Virus record (IMG/VR): IMGVR_UViG_2579778573_000005
Length of the DNA: 44,005 bases
Source of the DNA: a virus
Taxonomy: Duplodnaviria; Heunggongvirae; Uroviricota; Caudoviricetes
Direction: 5' to 3' (one strand)
Below are positions 272 through 43,305 of this stretch, in pieces. Position numbers and translations under genes: made by a program. Under the pieces are notes generated by a model. It saw only the letters and a list, made by a program, of their open reading frames with translations. It made no database searches and was not told the DNA's origin. How positions within the stretch are numbered: the first letter of the stretch is position 1; each line of letters starts with the position of its first letter.

Positions 272-1045
272 CTACCTTGTCCGCAATTCTTTGATCTGCC
301 CAGTTGCTGTGTCGTGATATTTAATCAGATACGTCGGTTCCGGATTTTCGCCACCGCTACCACTATCGCCACTTTGTCCATTTCTCGAATAGCCCCAGCT
401 GGAGTTATCACGACGAGTTAGCGTGTAGTGCTGGAGCGGAGCACCGCTAACAGATTCGCCCGCGCCGCGCGGCAGGAATATCCAGTACCCGCCCGCGGGT
501 TTACTCACCGCATCGAATCTCGTTGCGAGCCGCGACATCAGGTGCATATCTGACTCGCCGACCTGATCGAGTTGCGTGATAACATTGTCTGCAAACCGCT
601 TTGATACGCGTGGTTTTAGCCCATTATCGCTCGCTATTGTCGCAACGATATCGCTGACAGTGACGTCGCTCCAGGAACGAGTCTTTTTGCTCTGAACTGT
701 CGGAGATCCTTTTGCTGCGTTCATCGGAGCCGCTTTTGCTGTGAAATCAACTACCCGGGGTTCACCGCCACTGCTAGCACCGTCAACGATGTATATCCCT
801 TTATCAATTATCTGATTACCGAAACCGAGCCCAATACTGATTTTTACTCCGCGGGCCGGAATTTTCAGAGTTTCAGAAACTATTGCTACGCGGAGTTCGT
901 CTGTCTGTTTACTGGAGCCGCCGTAATCTGTCAGCGTGATATTGATCAAACCTTTTCTTATTTTATCCGTGATGTTTTTATTATCAGCAGATATATAAAA
1001 ATTAGGTTTCCACGCCTCCACGCCAGTATTTACGTAATCACTCAT
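272..1045 (-). CDS. Phage tail protein D (P2 gpD-like), N-terminal ~257 codons
   Basis: Track ORF 257 aa; last gene of a P2-ordered tail operon; shorter than typical gpD (~350-390 aa). Confidence 0.55.
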   Translation of the reverse strand: MSDYVNTGVEAWKPNFYISADNKNITDKIRKGLINITLTDYGGSSKQTDELRVAIVSETLKIPARGVKISIGLGFGNQIIDKGIYIVDGASSGGEPRVVDFTAKAAPMNAAKGSPTVQSKKTRSWSDVTVSDIVATIASDNGLKPRVSKRFADNVITQLDQVGESDMHLMSRLATRFDAVSKPAGGYWIFLPRGAGESVSGAPLQHYTLTRRDNSSWGYSRNGQSGDSGSGGENPEPTYLIKYHDTATGQIKELRTR

Positions 1046-1048
1046 TCA

Positions 1049-1273
1049 TCAATCCCATAATTGCGTTTCTTTTTTAACCGGCTCTGGTTCGATATCTGGT
1101 AAAACAATTTTTTCTCCAGCACGAAACACGGCACACATATCCGTTACGCCGTAATTCGAAACCTGATATAAAACAGTCTCTGTCGTTTTTGACGCTCTCC
1201 CGTAGACCGCAAGGCAGATCTGATCGAGACGGTCACCGTCCCGTGTAGTGTATGTAATCATTTGGGGCCCCAT
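1049..1273 (-). CDS. Phage tail protein X-like small protein
   Basis: Track ORF 74 aa; resembles P2 gpX-type small tail proteins; sits between U and D. Confidence 0.5.
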   Translation of the reverse strand: MGPQMITYTTRDGDRLDQICLAVYGRASKTTETVLYQVSNYGVTDMCAVFRAGEKIVLPDIEPEPVKKETQLWD

Positions 1274-1434
1274 TAATTAAAAGGATTTCATAATGAGAAT
1301 TAATTTTAGTAGTCGGAGAGGTATTAGTATTTCGGCGTCAAAAAAAATACCATCAGGTTGTTTTACATTTATGTTCGTAGTTTTTTTTATTATTTTTATA
1401 CTTGTTAAGTGCTCTGGTAGCGCTTGATTTTGTA

Positions 1435-1863
1435 TTAATCTAGCGAAGCTCCATAATATTCGAGCGTGAGTGAAAAGTCCTGCGATTTAGGTGTTCCGCC
1501 CATCAAAAAGCTGTTTTGCGTTTCAGTTAGTTCTCGCAGCACCCAGTACCCTTTCACCTCCCCGGTCCCCAGCACTAGCTGCTGGGGTTCTCCCGTGTTC
1601 CCGAGCGCTCGCAAATCTGTCAACAGGCCGACGCCGCACCCGTCAAGAAATAAAGCGTTTATCTTTCCATCGATAGTAATTGTGGGGTTCGGTCGTCCGG
1701 TTATCTGCAACGCGTCGTTTTTCCCGAATCGTGTTTGCTGAGCCCAGCGCCAGGCGTCACTACGTTGCAGTTTGTTGTACGCTACTGTTGATATAGCAAA
1801 AATGAAATCACCCAGGCCGAGCATGATATCCTCAGCACCGTTTATTGCATCACTCATTGTCAC
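1435..1863 (-). CDS. Phage tail protein U-like
   Basis: Track ORF 142 aa immediately downstream of the tape measure gene, overlapping its stop. Confidence 0.5.
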   Translation of the reverse strand: MTMSDAINGAEDIMLGLGDFIFAISTVAYNKLQRSDAWRWAQQTRFGKNDALQITGRPNPTITIDGKINALFLDGCGVGLLTDLRALGNTGEPQQLVLGTGEVKGYWVLRELTETQNSFLMGGTPKSQDFSLTLEYYGASLD

Positions 1864-3500
1864 CCCGCCGCAGCTGGTTTATCAAACATCGCGCCACGAT
1901 TGTACGAACTCGCAGCCTGTCTCAGTCCATCGAGCACCCCCGACGCTGCAGATTGTTGTATTGACTGCGGATCTGTCGCACCGACAATATTGATTTCGAT
2001 TTTATTGTTTTGCTCCGGCGCAGGTGTCGAGACTGCCTGCTTCAACGTATCAATATTTAACGTCGACGAATCCAGTGCTGCAGGCGCGGTATTTTTATTT
2101 ACCATCCCGGATAATGGATTAACAAACGCGAGCATTGATTCTGCCTGAGATTTTGCCTGTTCTTGCCGTTCTGGATGCCGCATATTTTCGACAGCCTCTT
2201 CGGCTTTTGCCTTCGCAATATTATCAGCAGTCAATCCAGCGTTCGGTGAATATTTACCTCCCGAATCCATAAACTCTTGATATGCCCGATTATATTCGTC
2301 ATTATAAGTTTTCTGTTCTTCATCTGATTTTTCATCCGGAATAAGCCACTCCAGTTTCTTTACGACAGCCCATATAATCTTCCCGAATTTGACGCAACCT
2401 TCTCCAAAATTGACGATGCCATCCCACATTTTTTTCATATTTTCTGGTTTTACCCACTCAGTAATTGTGCTGACAAAACCACCCTGATTATCCTTAAACC
2501 AGGATGTAAATGTTTCACGTACTGAGTCAAACGTCGGCGCGAGTTCCCCCCCGATTTTACCGAGTGTATCTGCAAGTCCCGACGTAATAGAGCCCCACAG
2601 ATTTGTCACTGATACATGCGCACGCGCCGCCCCTTCCGCACCCTCTTTTGTTAACAAATTCGACTTTTGCGCGTCAGACATTGTCTGTTCCCAGCTTTTA
2701 CCCGTCGCCTTCATATACGTCATGATCTTATTAGCCTCGCCCCCCATGAGCTGGTCAGCGAGGCTCGCCGCTTGCTTCTCATCTTTCATTTCAGAGATGC
2801 GACGCATAACCTCATTAAACTGTTTTTCCCGATCCCAGCCAGCCATTCGTTTTTTCGTCAGGCCAATTTGAAATAACATGGGATTCAGGCTTTTTTCGTT
2901 TCCGATTTCGCCGATTTTATTTGTAAGTTCTTCAGACAAATCCCCGATATTTTCGCCGTTCAGGCCCGCGGCTTTACCAATATTTTCCCACGCAGCGTAT
3001 TTTTCGACGCCAACGCCGTAGGACTTCGCCAGACCGAGTTTTTCTGACGTCTCTGCATTCATTGCCAGCGCACCAGCTGCAGCACCGCCAATGAGCCCTG
3101 CCGCGCCAAGTGTCCCCCATTTGATACCCCGCCCCGTAGCCCTCACCGCACCTGCGGCGGCTCGTCCGCCCCATTTTGCAGCTCCTTTTGCGCGACCCGT
3201 CCACTTCTCCAGCCGCTGTTTTTTAGCAAGTTGAGTATTCAGCGCCTCCTGGTCCTGCGTTGTCGCTTTTATTCGACGGTCCAGCTTTTGATACTGAGCA
3301 GATAAATCAGAAACGTCTTTACCTGCCAGTTTCATTGCTGCGATTTTGTCTTTTAATTTATCCTGACTTTTCGTTAATTTCCCGACAGTAGACGACGTCT
3401 GCCGAATCGCATCATTGAGTTCTGTTGTACCGCGACGAAACGACGGGTCTATTCGCCCACCGAATACAACCTGCGTTTTAAAGTTTTGAGAAATAGCCAT
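1860..3500 (-). CDS. Tail tape measure protein
   Basis: Track ORF 546 aa; Gly/Ala-rich and coiled-coil-like segments; position between chaperone E and U. Confidence 0.65.
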   Translation of the reverse strand: MAISQNFKTQVVFGGRIDPSFRRGTTELNDAIRQTSSTVGKLTKSQDKLKDKIAAMKLAGKDVSDLSAQYQKLDRRIKATTQDQEALNTQLAKKQRLEKWTGRAKGAAKWGGRAAAGAVRATGRGIKWGTLGAAGLIGGAAAGALAMNAETSEKLGLAKSYGVGVEKYAAWENIGKAAGLNGENIGDLSEELTNKIGEIGNEKSLNPMLFQIGLTKKRMAGWDREKQFNEVMRRISEMKDEKQAASLADQLMGGEANKIMTYMKATGKSWEQTMSDAQKSNLLTKEGAEGAARAHVSVTNLWGSITSGLADTLGKIGGELAPTFDSVRETFTSWFKDNQGGFVSTITEWVKPENMKKMWDGIVNFGEGCVKFGKIIWAVVKKLEWLIPDEKSDEEQKTYNDEYNRAYQEFMDSGGKYSPNAGLTADNIAKAKAEEAVENMRHPERQEQAKSQAESMLAFVNPLSGMVNKNTAPAALDSSTLNIDTLKQAVSTPAPEQNNKIEINIVGATDPQSIQQSAASGVLDGLRQAASSYNRGAMFDKPAAAG

Positions 3501-3608
3501 CGATTTTCATGACCTCGTTTACATAGAAATTAAAAACCCGGTACGGCAGGTCCATTTGCGTATCGGGCGGGATGGCAAGTTTTTTCGCAATAAACGGAAT
3601 CAGAATAA

Positions 3609-3890
3609 CTATATCTGATGTCGGTCTTTCGGAGGCTTTACCAGTTCGTTAAATGCGGCCTCCATTTGATCGTAATCGCACGCAGGCAGTGCATATAAAT
3701 CCTCACGCTCCAGATTTGCCAGGCGCGCCAGCATTGTCGCTGTCCGCTCTTCAAGACCACTTTTATCGTTACTGAACATAATGCGGTCGCGTAATTTTGG
3801 TTCGCGAATAGTAATTGTATCGCGGCTCTCCCCCTTAATAATAAACGGGCGAGAGAGCGTAATAGTCATACTGTCTAATAATGATTCCAT
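3609..3890 (-). CDS. Tail assembly chaperone (P2 gpE-like)
   Basis: Track ORF 93 aa between tube and tape measure genes; a -1 frame extension ORF (3478-3648) overlaps its 3' end. Confidence 0.45.
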   Translation of the reverse strand: MESLLDSMTITLSRPFIIKGESRDTITIREPKLRDRIMFSNDKSGLEERTATMLARLANLEREDLYALPACDYDQMEAAFNELVKPPKDRHQI

Positions 3891-3902: not shown

Positions 3903-4415
3903 TTAATATACATGGAGAATACGAGCAACGCCCGCAAGAACGTCAACACCATTAATTACTCGTTTCATTTTTGCAGGATGAATCTCGTAAATAATTTTTC
4001 CATTTTGAACTCGTTTATAATAGCTCGGCGCAATCGTTACTGATTGCCCAACTGCTGATTTTGAATCAGTCCCCTGCGCGTCATCAGTAATCGCCGTAAT
4101 AAGCCCCTCATATGTATCAATACGTTCAAAATTGACACCGTAATTGTCAGTATATGCACTTCGAATTTCGAACCTTGTTTTAGCACCTGGTATTAATCCC
4201 AAATACCCCATCACACCAGAATCGGAGCCAGAGACTTTAAAACTGGCTGACATTTTCTCCATTCCCCCGTCCAGAGTGATAGCTGTATCCATAGCGCCCG
4301 TCTTAAAATCATCTTCGATTATTTTCATATCGACGGGAGTGTATTCAGTGCAATTTAAAACTCGTTCTCCCTGGACGAACAACGCAAATGCACGATAGGT
4401 GTTACTATCTGCCAT
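3903..4415 (-). CDS. Tail tube protein (P2 FII-like)
   Basis: Track ORF 170 aa directly after the sheath gene. Confidence 0.6.
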   Translation of the reverse strand: MADSNTYRAFALFVQGERVLNCTEYTPVDMKIIEDDFKTGAMDTAITLDGGMEKMSASFKVSGSDSGVMGYLGLIPGAKTRFEIRSAYTDNYGVNFERIDTYEGLITAITDDAQGTDSKSAVGQSVTIAPSYYKRVQNGKIIYEIHPAKMKRVINGVDVLAGVARILHVY

Positions 4416-4432: not shown

Positions 4433-5935
4433 TTAGACTGTTTCTTTAAAAAGAGAGGCCAGAGCTTCAACTGTGTAATCATTATTAATGCGGTACATTA
4501 ACGTAATTGTTTGTGCCGGGGATTTCGGTCCAAAGTCAACATTAATATAAAGATTACCAGCGGCCAGACTTTCTTTTGTATTTAACTCTTCATCTAACCA
4601 CGCCCGTCCTCCGTTAATCGCGCCCTGCTCCTCTAATTTATGCAGATACGCGTTTATCGACTCTACAACGTCTGTTCCGAGGTGCAGGTCTATCGGGCGA
4701 TCAATAAAATCGGTCATCATTGCCCGGGCTATTGAATCCTCAATTACGTCAGCTGTCCGACGAACGCATTCAAAGGACCATTGGGGACTGAGGCTACACA
4801 GATAGTTACCCCAGTGTCTGAATCCATCATAGCGAATAATTGTGCTGACCTGGCTGGCGTTCAGCAGATTTGCTGTGCAGTTCGTTTCACCGATTATAAA
4901 ATCATCGACTTGTTCGAGTCCTGTAATTCCGTAGATATTTTGATTCGATTTGCTCCACCAAAACCCTTTTTCGTTATCAATTCTGGCTCGTAAACCAGCA
5001 GCGATAGCTGAATACGGACGAGATAAACCACTAACATCACTCGTAGAATAAACACGAGGGCGCAGAATTTCCATTCTGCCGCCGTACCTCTGACGACGAT
5101 TTACAACGTCAGCAGGCGTAGCGCCTCGCGGTGAATCGATATATCCAACGCCTCGTAATTTATTTGTCACCACTTCAAGTTGTTCTGCAATATAATCGTT
5201 AGCACTATAATCTGGAGCGATTAAAATTCTCGGCGTTACTTGATTTATTTGCGCAGACGTCAACAATGCGTTAATCCCGTTAACGACGTTCTGCCGCATT
5301 TTTGTTTCGTCGCTGTCCTCTTCGACGCGGACAACAACAATAATGGCATCCTCCTGATTTAGTATTTCAGATACAGCGGGAGGAAGGGTTCCAGACCCAC
5401 CGAGCAATCCAGCTTTTTTTTGACTGCCTGCAATTAACGTCGGAACATTATATTTGAACGATTCGTCTTTACCACCGGATAAATTTGTTGGGGGGAGCGC
5501 GAATACAGTCCCCGTTCCTGCGTGATCACCACCGAATGTGACGTTAATATATTCTCCAATCTGGAGTCCTTCTTTATACTGCTGGTTCTGATCGTACATT
5601 TTTGACGGGGTCATGGCACCGTCCGTGATCATTGTTAATTTTCTCGAACCGTCGGGCAGTGTGCTGTATCCTGGAGTTGCTACATTCCCGTTAATTCCCA
5701 AATCAACAATTTCAACAATCCAGTTGTTTCCGTCGGCCCCTGGCATGACAGTCGAAAACTCAACAAGATTGTCTGCGAGCTCTGATCCCCATAATAGTGA
5801 TGCACAAGTTGGGTAGCTGGAATCGGGAGCAGTACCAACAATCCCAATCACGGAAATATCTACTGTGTTGATCTCTTTTGTGCCGTCGTCGTATTCGAGC
5901 GTGCGAATACCGTGTAAAAAATTAGTTACGCTCAT
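4433..5935 (-). CDS. Contractile tail sheath protein (P2 FI-like)
   Basis: Track ORF 500 aa; N-terminal region resembles P2 FI sheath. Confidence 0.8.
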   Translation of the reverse strand: MSVTNFLHGIRTLEYDDGTKEINTVDISVIGIVGTAPDSSYPTCASLLWGSELADNLVEFSTVMPGADGNNWIVEIVDLGINGNVATPGYSTLPDGSRKLTMITDGAMTPSKMYDQNQQYKEGLQIGEYINVTFGGDHAGTGTVFALPPTNLSGGKDESFKYNVPTLIAGSQKKAGLLGGSGTLPPAVSEILNQEDAIIVVVRVEEDSDETKMRQNVVNGINALLTSAQINQVTPRILIAPDYSANDYIAEQLEVVTNKLRGVGYIDSPRGATPADVVNRRQRYGGRMEILRPRVYSTSDVSGLSRPYSAIAAGLRARIDNEKGFWWSKSNQNIYGITGLEQVDDFIIGETNCTANLLNASQVSTIIRYDGFRHWGNYLCSLSPQWSFECVRRTADVIEDSIARAMMTDFIDRPIDLHLGTDVVESINAYLHKLEEQGAINGGRAWLDEELNTKESLAAGNLYINVDFGPKSPAQTITLMYRINNDYTVEALASLFKETV

Positions 5936-31541: not shown

Positions 31542-31765
31542 TCATCTGGTGGTGAGCTGTGCAGGGTTGGCGTAACCGGCTAAGTGAACCCGGCGCTTCC
31601 ACAGAAGCCCCCACACAGCCCACCATAATGCGAATGTGGCCGTGCCTAACACATAAAAAAACCGCTAACGCGGCTATGCGTCACTTAGATATCCGGGACG
31701 CCAATCCCGGCAACCGATTTTGCGGCTGCGCGGAAACTATAGCCCCGGACTTTTTCTAAGTCAAT

Positions 31766-43003: not shown

Positions 43004-43090
43004 TGGTACCCGGAGCGGGACTTGAACCCGCACAGCGCGAACGCCGAGGGATTTTAAATCCCTTGTGTCTACCGATTCCACCATCCGGGC
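43004..43090 (-). tRNA. leuZ: tRNA-Leu (anticodon UAA)
   Basis: 87-nt reverse complement reads GCCCGGATGGTGGAATCGGTAGACACAAGGGATTTAAAATCCC...CCA with long variable arm. Confidence 0.9.
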
Positions 43091-43102
43091 TCGGGAAAAA
43101 AG

Positions 43103-43176
43103 TGGAGGCGCGTTCCGGAGTCGAACCGGACTAGACGGATTTGCAATCCGCTACATAACCGCTTTGTTAACGCGCC
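43103..43176 (-). tRNA. cysT: tRNA-Cys (anticodon GCA)
   Basis: 74-nt reverse complement reads GGCGCGTTAACAAAGCGG...GATTGCAAATC...TCCA. Confidence 0.9.
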
Positions 43177-43229
43177 AAATTCTTCAGGCCTTTCAGCCAG
43201 ACATCCGCTGACGCCGATGCCTTTTAAAC

Positions 43230-43305
<76 letters not shown>

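Follow-up and report, generated by a model that had tools for sequence, protein, structure and literature searches.

A predicted −1 frameshift extension of the tail assembly chaperone E in an Escherichia coli prophage with a P2-type tail module

The DNA analysed here, referred to as the window, is a stretch of 44,005 nucleotides (nt) from a tailed virus of the Caudoviricetes (IMG/VR record IMGVR_UViG_2579778573_000005). On its minus strand, an open reading frame (ORF) at positions 3478-3648 runs in the −1 frame across the stop codon of E, the gene for a tail assembly chaperone. We conclude with good confidence that this ORF is probably E', the −1 extension of the chaperone E in a P2-type contractile tail module of an E. 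coli prophage, and that it is most likely entered by a shift at the non-canonical site GUA_AAG. The ORF exists and is conserved, protein-level selection acts on it in the −1 frame, and none of its start codons is conserved. We infer the slipping itself, its efficiency, the exact codon of the shift and the roles of the two domains of the product. The comparisons described below support a chaperone frameshift of the P2 E/E+E' type that has been left unannotated. The features on which the argument turns are the following.

3609-3890, minus strand: gene E, tail assembly chaperone, zero-frame product of 93 amino acids (PF10109 Phage_TAC_7)
3478-3648, minus strand: −1 ORF E', 56 sense codons plus stop, with 3639-3481 as the part read after the proposed slip
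3649-3651, minus strand: TAA closing the −1 frame, made by the Phe-Asn codons UUU AAC of E; the 5' limit for a shift into E'
3636-3642, minus strand: proposed slip site G_GUA_AAG, with the core A_AAG tetramer / GUA_AAG hexamer
3478-3890, minus strand: predicted frameshift fusion E+E' of 137 amino acids, made of E residues 1-85 (3890-3636) and 52 E' residues

In the proposed mechanism, the majority of ribosomes would make the 93-residue E and terminate at the UAG stop codon (3611-3609), and a minority would move one base back at GUA_AAG (3641-3636). At this site, AAG would be left by the only tRNA-Lys of E. coli (anticodon mnm5s2UUU), which would re-pair with the overlapping AAA. Having shifted, these ribosomes would read 52 further −1-frame codons, stop 23 nt into the next gene and so yield the 137-residue E+E'. 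The predicted junction reads AAFNELVK up to the shift and ASERPTSDIVILIPF (ASERPTSDIV) after it, with G3636 read twice and the end at the stop codon 3480-3478, and the logic of the join is that of the annotated E+E' of P2 and of the chaperone of Burkholderia phage Mica. If lambda G/GT is a guide, the common E part may bind the tape-measure protein and the E' part may recruit tube subunits (PMC5009743), and the slip frequency would set the ratio of E to E+E'.

The −1 open reading frame and its conservation

The minus-strand translation of window positions 3478-3651 is RTGKASERPTSDIVILIPFIAKKLAIPPDTQMDLPYRVFNFYVNEVMKIDGYFSKL, flanked by a stop codon on either side, with the sense codons of the ORF at 3648-3481 and its stop codon at 3480-3478; a peptide in the E' frame is exemplified by ASERPTSDIVILIPFIAK. 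Codons of E start at positions that equal 2 modulo 3 (3890, 3638) and codons of the ORF at positions that equal 0 modulo 3 (3648, 3639), and the frame of the ORF is −1 relative to E, i.e. one base 5' on the minus strand. A preliminary description of this DNA had given the −1 frame as open for 57 codons from 3648 to 3478 and as overlapping the last 13 codons of E. Both statements agree with the translation and the coordinates when stop codons are counted, the 40-nt overlap (3648-3609) comprising the last 12 sense codons of E and its stop codon. It had also described an overlap with the start of the tape-measure gene T; the overlap holds, extending over the first 23 nt of the ORF at 1860-3500, whereas the identity of that ORF as a tape-measure gene is positional only. 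Open stretches of at least 56 codons in the −1 frame make up 5 of 417 such stretches in 19 structural genes of the window and hold 6.6% of the −1-frame codons. The length of the ORF by itself is mildly unusual and amounts to weak evidence; the evidence that the ORF is more than a product of chance lies in its conservation, not its length.

Relatives of E, 49 in all, were gathered from genomes, viral contigs, metagenomes and assemblies. A one-protein scan of genome contigs gave two loci, and an E' query on viral contigs recovered the same contigs as an E query. The window's own clade (clade A) comprises 16 distinct sequences with E identities of 50-100%, and its sister clade (clade B) comprises nine Enterobacteriaceae loci (L004, L026-L032 and L052). 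A −1 ORF across the E stop codon is present in all 48 relatives with E in one frame, down to an E identity of 35%; conservation of the ORF in relatives had been set beforehand as one of the points on which the prediction could fail. No information comes from the 49th, L035, whose E frame is broken, probably by an assembly error. The ORF is 55-63 codons long in 45 of the 48, the exceptions being phage Mica, L033 and L034 (86-118 codons, with a longer overlap with E), and its end lies between 10 nt before and 25 nt after the ATG of the downstream gene. In contrast, the +1 frame varies freely among the relatives. A TAA derived from UUU AAY bounds the ORF likewise in clade A and clade B relatives, and since the TAA within UUU AAC closes the −1 frame, any shift into E' has to take place within the 12 sense codons that follow it. 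Throughout clade A, E' is ungapped and extends over 53 codons from the Lys (16 of 16 sequences).

The pattern of substitution in clade A is that of a protein read in the −1 frame. Between the E stop codon and the next ATG, column entropy by codon position of this frame is 0.57, 0.37 and 1.07 (n = 16), and of the codon pairs that differ, 45% are synonymous when read in the −1 frame versus 7% and 8% in the other two. Judged by this substitution signature, the E' stretch is a translated and selected protein sequence in the −1 frame. How ribosomes would reach it is constrained by the absence of ATG, GTG and TTG from the first 17 codons of the ORF in all 16 clade A sequences; further downstream, no column holds a start codon in all 16, and a search for Shine-Dalgarno sequences before the near-cognate Ile/Leu codons past the E stop codon found none. 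Also, E' is hardly ever called by gene callers: a profile search with E' against 5.8 billion clusters returned four short ORFs, and phmmer, run exhaustively on 1.84 billion representatives, returned one 40-residue ORF and a spurious 1,120-residue repeat protein, with no natural in-frame E-E' fusion among them. Because E' has no conserved start and no Shine-Dalgarno sequence and is nearly absent from protein databases, it would be reachable only from E.

The same observations bear on the possibility that E' is made as a separate peptide of about 40-45 residues, either by re-initiation after the E stop codon or from a non-canonical AUA, AUU or CUG start at ORF codons 14-18, which we regard as quite improbable. 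Near-cognate AUH and CUG codons are found at codons 14-18 in 9-15 of the 16 relatives, E' of Hafnia phage yong2 was called by its annotators as a separate hypothetical protein of 39 residues, and three 40-residue database ORFs start at a lineage-specific AUG. However, the near-cognate codons merely encode a conserved hydrophobic Ile/Leu run, and to the lack of a conserved canonical start and of a Shine-Dalgarno sequence it can be added that no relative has any canonical start before codon 18. A separate peptide would leave unexplained that the −1 frame is open in every case as far back as the slip motif and that synonymous sites within that motif are frozen (see below), and the homologous product is annotated as a fusion in P2 and in phage Mica.

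The E' part, whether searched alone or within the fusion, matches no family in Pfam, NCBIfam or PHROGs, and the fusion found nothing below E = 0.28 among the sequences of the PDB. At the profile level, E' of clade A aligns with E' of clade B (hhalign probability 92%, E = 7e-7, 45 columns), and E' of clade B is tied to that of P2 by a weak link (probability 42%). By profile comparison, E' of clade A is homologous to that of its sister clade, in which P2's canonical slip site is found. An origin of E' by internal duplication of the C-terminal half of E was considered and rejected, as the MAFFT alignment was suggestive but the hhalign probability only 8.8%. In that alignment, E' (3481-3590) was placed on E residues 51-85 (3636-3740), with a hydrophobic helix ... 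LP ... F/V-N-E-L/V-x-K pattern. Two 137-residue proteins, P0004 and P0005, were likewise discarded as evidence for the fusion: they are single-base insertion variants, and +1-frame equivalents, P0003 and P0006, also exist. Public assemblies contain several such single-base insertion or deletion variants (P0003-P0006 and P0028), in which E is joined to the −1 frame (137 residues) or to the +1 frame (119 residues). These variants, which mimic a frameshift product, are most likely sequencing or assembly errors.

The slip site and its counterparts in known systems

At the proposed slip site, the zero-frame codons are GUA (3641-3639) and AAG (3638-3636), which are codons 84-85 of E, and the −1-frame codons are GGU (3642-3640) and AAA (3639-3637). 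The A_AAG tetramer lies in the zero-frame register (NNA_AAG), and the −1 frame is open across the site, from 3648. The 8-mer UGGUAAAG (also written TGGTAAAG) is invariant in the 16 distinct clade A sequences, down to an E identity of 50%. Among the 30 invariant residues of E in this clade that have degenerate codons, only two are encoded by a single codon throughout, the adjacent Val-GTA and Lys-AAG; the other 28 use two to five codons each. The frozen bases, at the third codon positions of Val and Lys, are exactly those that A_AAG requires. Coding in the −1 frame does not explain frozen synonymous sites upstream of the shift, and the slip motif is, by this comparison, selected at the nucleotide level. 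In the whole overlap, the only cognate A-site re-pairing that the sequence allows is AAG to AAA. As the 8-mer is invariant and the Val-GUA and Lys-AAG codons never change, we place the predicted shift at A_AAG, by tRNA-Lys, within 3642-3636. In E. coli, the preceding GUA is decoded by tRNA-Val cmo5UAC, which belongs to the extended-wobble tRNAs, a class reported to favour such shifts.

The preliminary description had listed two candidate sites, G-GUA-AAG and CCG-AAA-G. The first has gained strong comparative support from the invariant 8-mer and from its two synonymous sites, the only frozen ones in E. The second was rejected: most relatives read CCGACCG, CCGAGCG or CCAGCCG at this place, and its register would demand a non-cognate re-pairing from AAA to GAA. 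A fusion made by a shift elsewhere in the 40-nt overlap, at C_CCG-type proline codons, at CCG_AAA_G or through slippage of RNA polymerase, is in our view improbable. NNC_CCG does follow directly after AAG in 10 of 14 aligned relatives, C_CCG shifts 1.8-3.6 times above background in reporters (PMC4066793), and the window and its nearest relatives do have CCGAAAG. However, C_CCG is absent from L018, L051 and the window itself, which reads CCU_CCG; CCGAAAG has the defects just described; the overlap contains no homopolymer run long enough for transcriptional slippage; and GUA_AAG is both the only invariant candidate and the only place with frozen synonymous sites.

A shift at GUA_AAG would have a canonical counterpart in related phages. 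T_TTT_TTG stands directly after the TAA in the nine clade B loci, in two more distant loci and in P2, one codon upstream of GUA_AAG and at the homologous Phe-Asn-x-Phe-Leu position. Across these genomes, the comparison indicates that the shift window is positionally conserved while the motif has turned over. Hence, the window's clade appears to have replaced the canonical T_TTT_TTG, and the non-canonical GUA_AAG is most likely its shift site in place of the U_UUU_UUG of the sister lineages, a proposal that is new and comes from comparative evidence. A second case is provided by Hafnia phage yong2 (L005, MZ516527.1, about 1729-1740), which has AAU GUU UUU AUG at the position of P2's U_UUU_UUG; its U_UUU tetramer, with no heptamer, is another non-canonical chaperone slip site. 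Turnover would have occurred inside a fixed window of about four codons, which holds U_UUU_UUG in P2 and the sister clade, GUU_UUU in yong2 and GUA_AAG in the window's clade. Sites such as GUU_UUU and GUA_AAG would escape heptamer-based frameshift finders, and the frozen synonymous sites give a specific motif. The element is of use mainly for annotation and as a clean case for testing frameshifting that does without a heptamer. What has been known in general of tail chaperone frameshifting since the work on lambda G/GT and P2 E/E+E' is unchanged.

Among the closest known systems is P2, with its FETUD operon. Two overlapping ORFs, E and E', lie between the tube gene and the gene in the tape-measure position, the order being that of P2 FI-FII-E-E'-T-U (sheath, tube, E, E', T, U), and E of P2 also belongs to PF10109. 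In both, a −1 extension of about 50 codons starts some 7-13 codons before the E stop codon and terminates a few bases past the start of the next gene, with the shift window at a homologous place in the E C-terminus. The two differ in the slip site, canonical U_UUU_UUG in P2 and GUA_AAG one codon downstream in the window. They also differ in that the window's E' is tied to P2 E' only through the sister clade, and in the downstream gene, which encodes 815 residues in P2 and 546 in the window with no detectable similarity to gpT. Clade B itself has the same module, with E 42-50% identical, a homologous E' of 55-57 codons and the same TAA boundary, and it differs by its canonical T_TTT_TTG. The chaperone architecture of P2 E/E+E' and lambda G/GT, as claimed in the preliminary description, therefore agrees with the gene order, with PF10109 and with a conserved −1 ORF that has no start of its own, all but the canonical heptamer.

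In lambda, the G/GT chaperone pair likewise lies between the major tail (tube) gene and the tape-measure gene, and a low-level −1 shift takes place at a Lys AAG read by tRNA-Lys(UUU), as is proposed for the window. The lambda site G_GGA_AAG and the window's G_GUA_AAG are one base apart (PMC3296357, PMC5009743), and the shift in lambda amounts to about 4% and depends on the U34 modification of tRNA-Lys (PMC3296357). However, the P-site Gly tRNA of lambda re-pairs (GGA to GGG), whereas the Val tRNA of the window cannot do so fully. Lambda also has a non-contractile tail and a chaperone from an unrelated protein family, and its ratio of about 30:1 and its domain roles are experimentally established (PMC5009743), whereas those of the element in the window are predicted. 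In P-site pairing, parallels are IS1222 (G_CGA_AAG), cdd of B. subtilis (A_CGA_AAG) and NNA_AAG in the context of the insertion sequence IS3, in which a single tRNA-Lys slips from AAG to AAA next to an NNA codon unable to re-pair (PMC5009743, PMC4066793). For instance, A_AAG shifting is productive at G_CGA_AAG in IS1222, and NNA_AAG sites reach higher levels with 5' codons read by tRNAs of greater wobble propensity (PMC5009743). Tetramers in E. coli rank as A_AA.G >> U_UU.Y > C_CC.Y > A_AA.A, and A_AA.G reached 5.6% with the IS3 pseudoknot (PMC4066793). The insertion sequences differ from the window in having demonstrated downstream pseudoknots or hairpins, where a stimulator in the window is only suggested, and in that their sites lie in transposase genes rather than in a phage tail chaperone gene. 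A literature search found no paper mentioning GGUAAAG as a frameshift site.

RNA structures around the slip site and within E'

Three elements near the slip site or within E' were examined.

3585-3633, minus strand: candidate hairpin 1, AUCAGA (3619-3614) pairing with UCUGAU (3604-3599); minimum free energy −11.2 kcal/mol, z = −2.3
3659-3663, minus strand: Shine-Dalgarno-like GGAGG, 16 nt upstream of the heptamer; weak candidate stimulator
3526-3568, minus strand: hairpin 2, 3568-3559 pairing with 3545-3536, followed by a U-rich tract (3535-3526)

When the 60 nt after AAG are folded, hairpin 1 begins 3 nt after AAG and holds the E stop codon in its apical loop. The z-score of the 50 nt after AAG is negative in all ten diverged clade A sequences (mean −2.2), with a mean z near 0 in the upstream and most of the downstream flanking windows of the same ten. 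CGGAA is paired with UUCCG in many sequences, and the lower stems vary in sequence and register. A downstream stimulatory hairpin is possible but unproven, and a shift at this site with no stimulator would be expected to be inefficient. Upstream, GGAGG is found in 13 of the 16 clade A sequences, where it is also dictated by conserved Leu/Met-Glu residues. In stimulation of the dnaX type, the effective Shine-Dalgarno spacing is 10-14 nt; at 16 nt, GGAGG is probably too far upstream to stimulate.

Several results weigh against a shift at GUA_AAG or against the assignment of E', and they are taken together here. An X_XXY_YYZ heptamer in the E register is missing from the overlap, both in the window and in each of the 16 clade A sequences, in line with what the preliminary description had reported. 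The tRNA-Val in the P site would, once shifted by −1, stand opposite GGU and be mismatched at the middle position. Tetramer sites with no stimulator shift at about 0.15% in E. coli reporters, which is about background (PMC4066793), and a stimulator downstream of AAG is unproven. RNAalifold gave no consensus structure there; the fixed-register helix has no covariation, with 64.9% of cells paired versus 65.9% in shuffles; and synonymous randomisation of the 3' arm gave a mean z of −1.15, within the range of −1.18 to +0.44 set by nine control windows in neighbouring coding sequence. Kinship among the 16 relatives inflates every conservation count. As for E' itself, direct comparison of clade A E' with P2 E' gave an hhalign probability of 0.7%, and neither clade A nor clade B E' has a Pfam match, including to PF06528, even at E up to 10. 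PF06528 is the accession of the P2 GpE' extension domain. Finally, an AlphaFold2 model of the fusion, with P0004 as the first row, had a mean predicted local distance difference test score of 51, which is unusable; helices were predicted in E', and the model was not used.

Hairpin 2 is embedded in the region that codes for E', and its end lies 36 nt before the ATG of the downstream gene. Its 10-bp helix has 80% of cells paired over 14 sequences, a value reached in 0 of 500 shuffles and compared with 27-39% in slid registers, and three compensatory pairs, a count matched in 2 of 500 shuffles. Free energies lie between −13 kcal/mol, in the window with its one A-C mismatch, and −20 kcal/mol, and z goes down to −6. 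In L051, a different stem sequence occupies the same place and the U-tract is kept, and in a Salmonella subclade with intact E' the hairpin is weak or absent. A terminator scan flags 3553-3534, within a region whose total count of terminator-like elements is not above shuffle expectation. By its form, hairpin 2 looks like an intrinsic terminator. As it lies about 68 nt from the slip site, it is no conventional stimulator; it may act as a partial terminator or as a 3' stabiliser and so lower tape-measure expression relative to tube and chaperone.

This well-supported hairpin with its U-tract is also an argument for regarding the open −1 frame as a by-product, the 108-nt spacer between E and T being an untranslated but conserved RNA or DNA element such as a terminator-like hairpin; the only mildly unusual length of the ORF would fit as well. 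We consider this highly improbable. An RNA element does not produce three-base periodicity in the −1 frame together with a synonymous share of 45%, nor would it account for a fixed length with no insertions or deletions across 16 relatives or for the profile-level homology of the translation to E' of a clade with a different nucleotide sequence, and the hairpin is missing in a subclade that keeps E' intact.

Starting from E' as the −1 extension of E, we tentatively hypothesize, giving the idea slightly less than even credence, that this lineage swapped the ancestral U_UUU_UUG for the minimal single-tRNA site GUA_AAG one codon downstream and kept E+E'. The chaperone ratio in this widespread E. 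coli prophage of the ST131 type would then depend entirely on slippage of tRNA-Lys, possibly helped by a hairpin of variable register, and the embedded terminator-like hairpin would tune expression of the tape-measure gene and those downstream. If such a swap took place, the ratio would be sensitive to the U34 modification of the host tRNA-Lys.

Neighbouring genes, annotation and other observations

All genes of the region (sheath, tube, E, the −1 ORF, the 546-residue ORF and gpU) are on the minus strand. Those around E and E' are as follows.

4433-5935, minus strand: sheath gene
3903-4415, minus strand: tail tube gene, FII-like (PF04985 Phage_tube, E = 1.5e-21), directly upstream of E
1860-3500, minus strand: long ORF of 546 amino acids in the tape-measure position, its first 23 nt overlapping the end of E'
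1435-1863, minus strand: gpU (PF06995)
1049-1273, minus strand: gene X
272-1045, minus strand: D-like gene

E scores 57.2 bits against PF10109 Phage_TAC_7 (cut-off 25; E = 1.7e-15), belongs to PHROG 166 (tail protein) and is WP_000444667.1 in RefSeq, 'phage tail assembly protein'. The 546-residue ORF is assigned to PHROG 3654, function unknown, and is a 'hypothetical protein' in RefSeq. It has no significant match to P2 gpT (BLASTP E = 0.13) and no tape-measure match in Pfam or NCBIfam. From its position between the chaperone and gpU, its size and an Ala/Gly-rich segment, we infer that it is the tape-measure gene, which is the weakest point of the interpretation. In one E. coli genome (L080, NZ_CP187211.1, strain 20AR0734, 1016-1713), IS1 splits this gene after about 55 codons, and the tail module of the prophage has presumably lost its function there. 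The gap of about 160 nt between gpU and X (window 1273-1435) contains only a small plus-strand ORF (1293-1427) and, at 1404-1428, a terminator-like hairpin on the plus strand; RefSeq leaves it unannotated.

The region is 99-100% identical to a prophage in 453 of 5,426 complete E. coli genomes, many of them labelled O25b:H4-ST131, and it also matches four GenBank 'phage' records. In all records inspected, RefSeq leaves the 108-nt interval from E to T empty, with no frameshift product. An E+E' feature given as join(3890..3636, 3636..3478) would fill this systematic annotation gap.

Two further elements of the window lie well outside the tail module. At 31545-31742 (minus strand), Rfam matches above the gathering score were obtained for isrK (RF01394, 80 bits), C4 antisense RNA (RF01695, 75 bits) and the a1/b1 targets of C4 (RF03163), which points to an antisense immunity element of the P1/P7 style in the prophage. 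Three tRNA genes, Leu-TAA, Cys-GCA and Gly-GCC, stand in a row at 43004-43305 (minus strand) and are probably part of the host chromosome flanking the end of the prophage.

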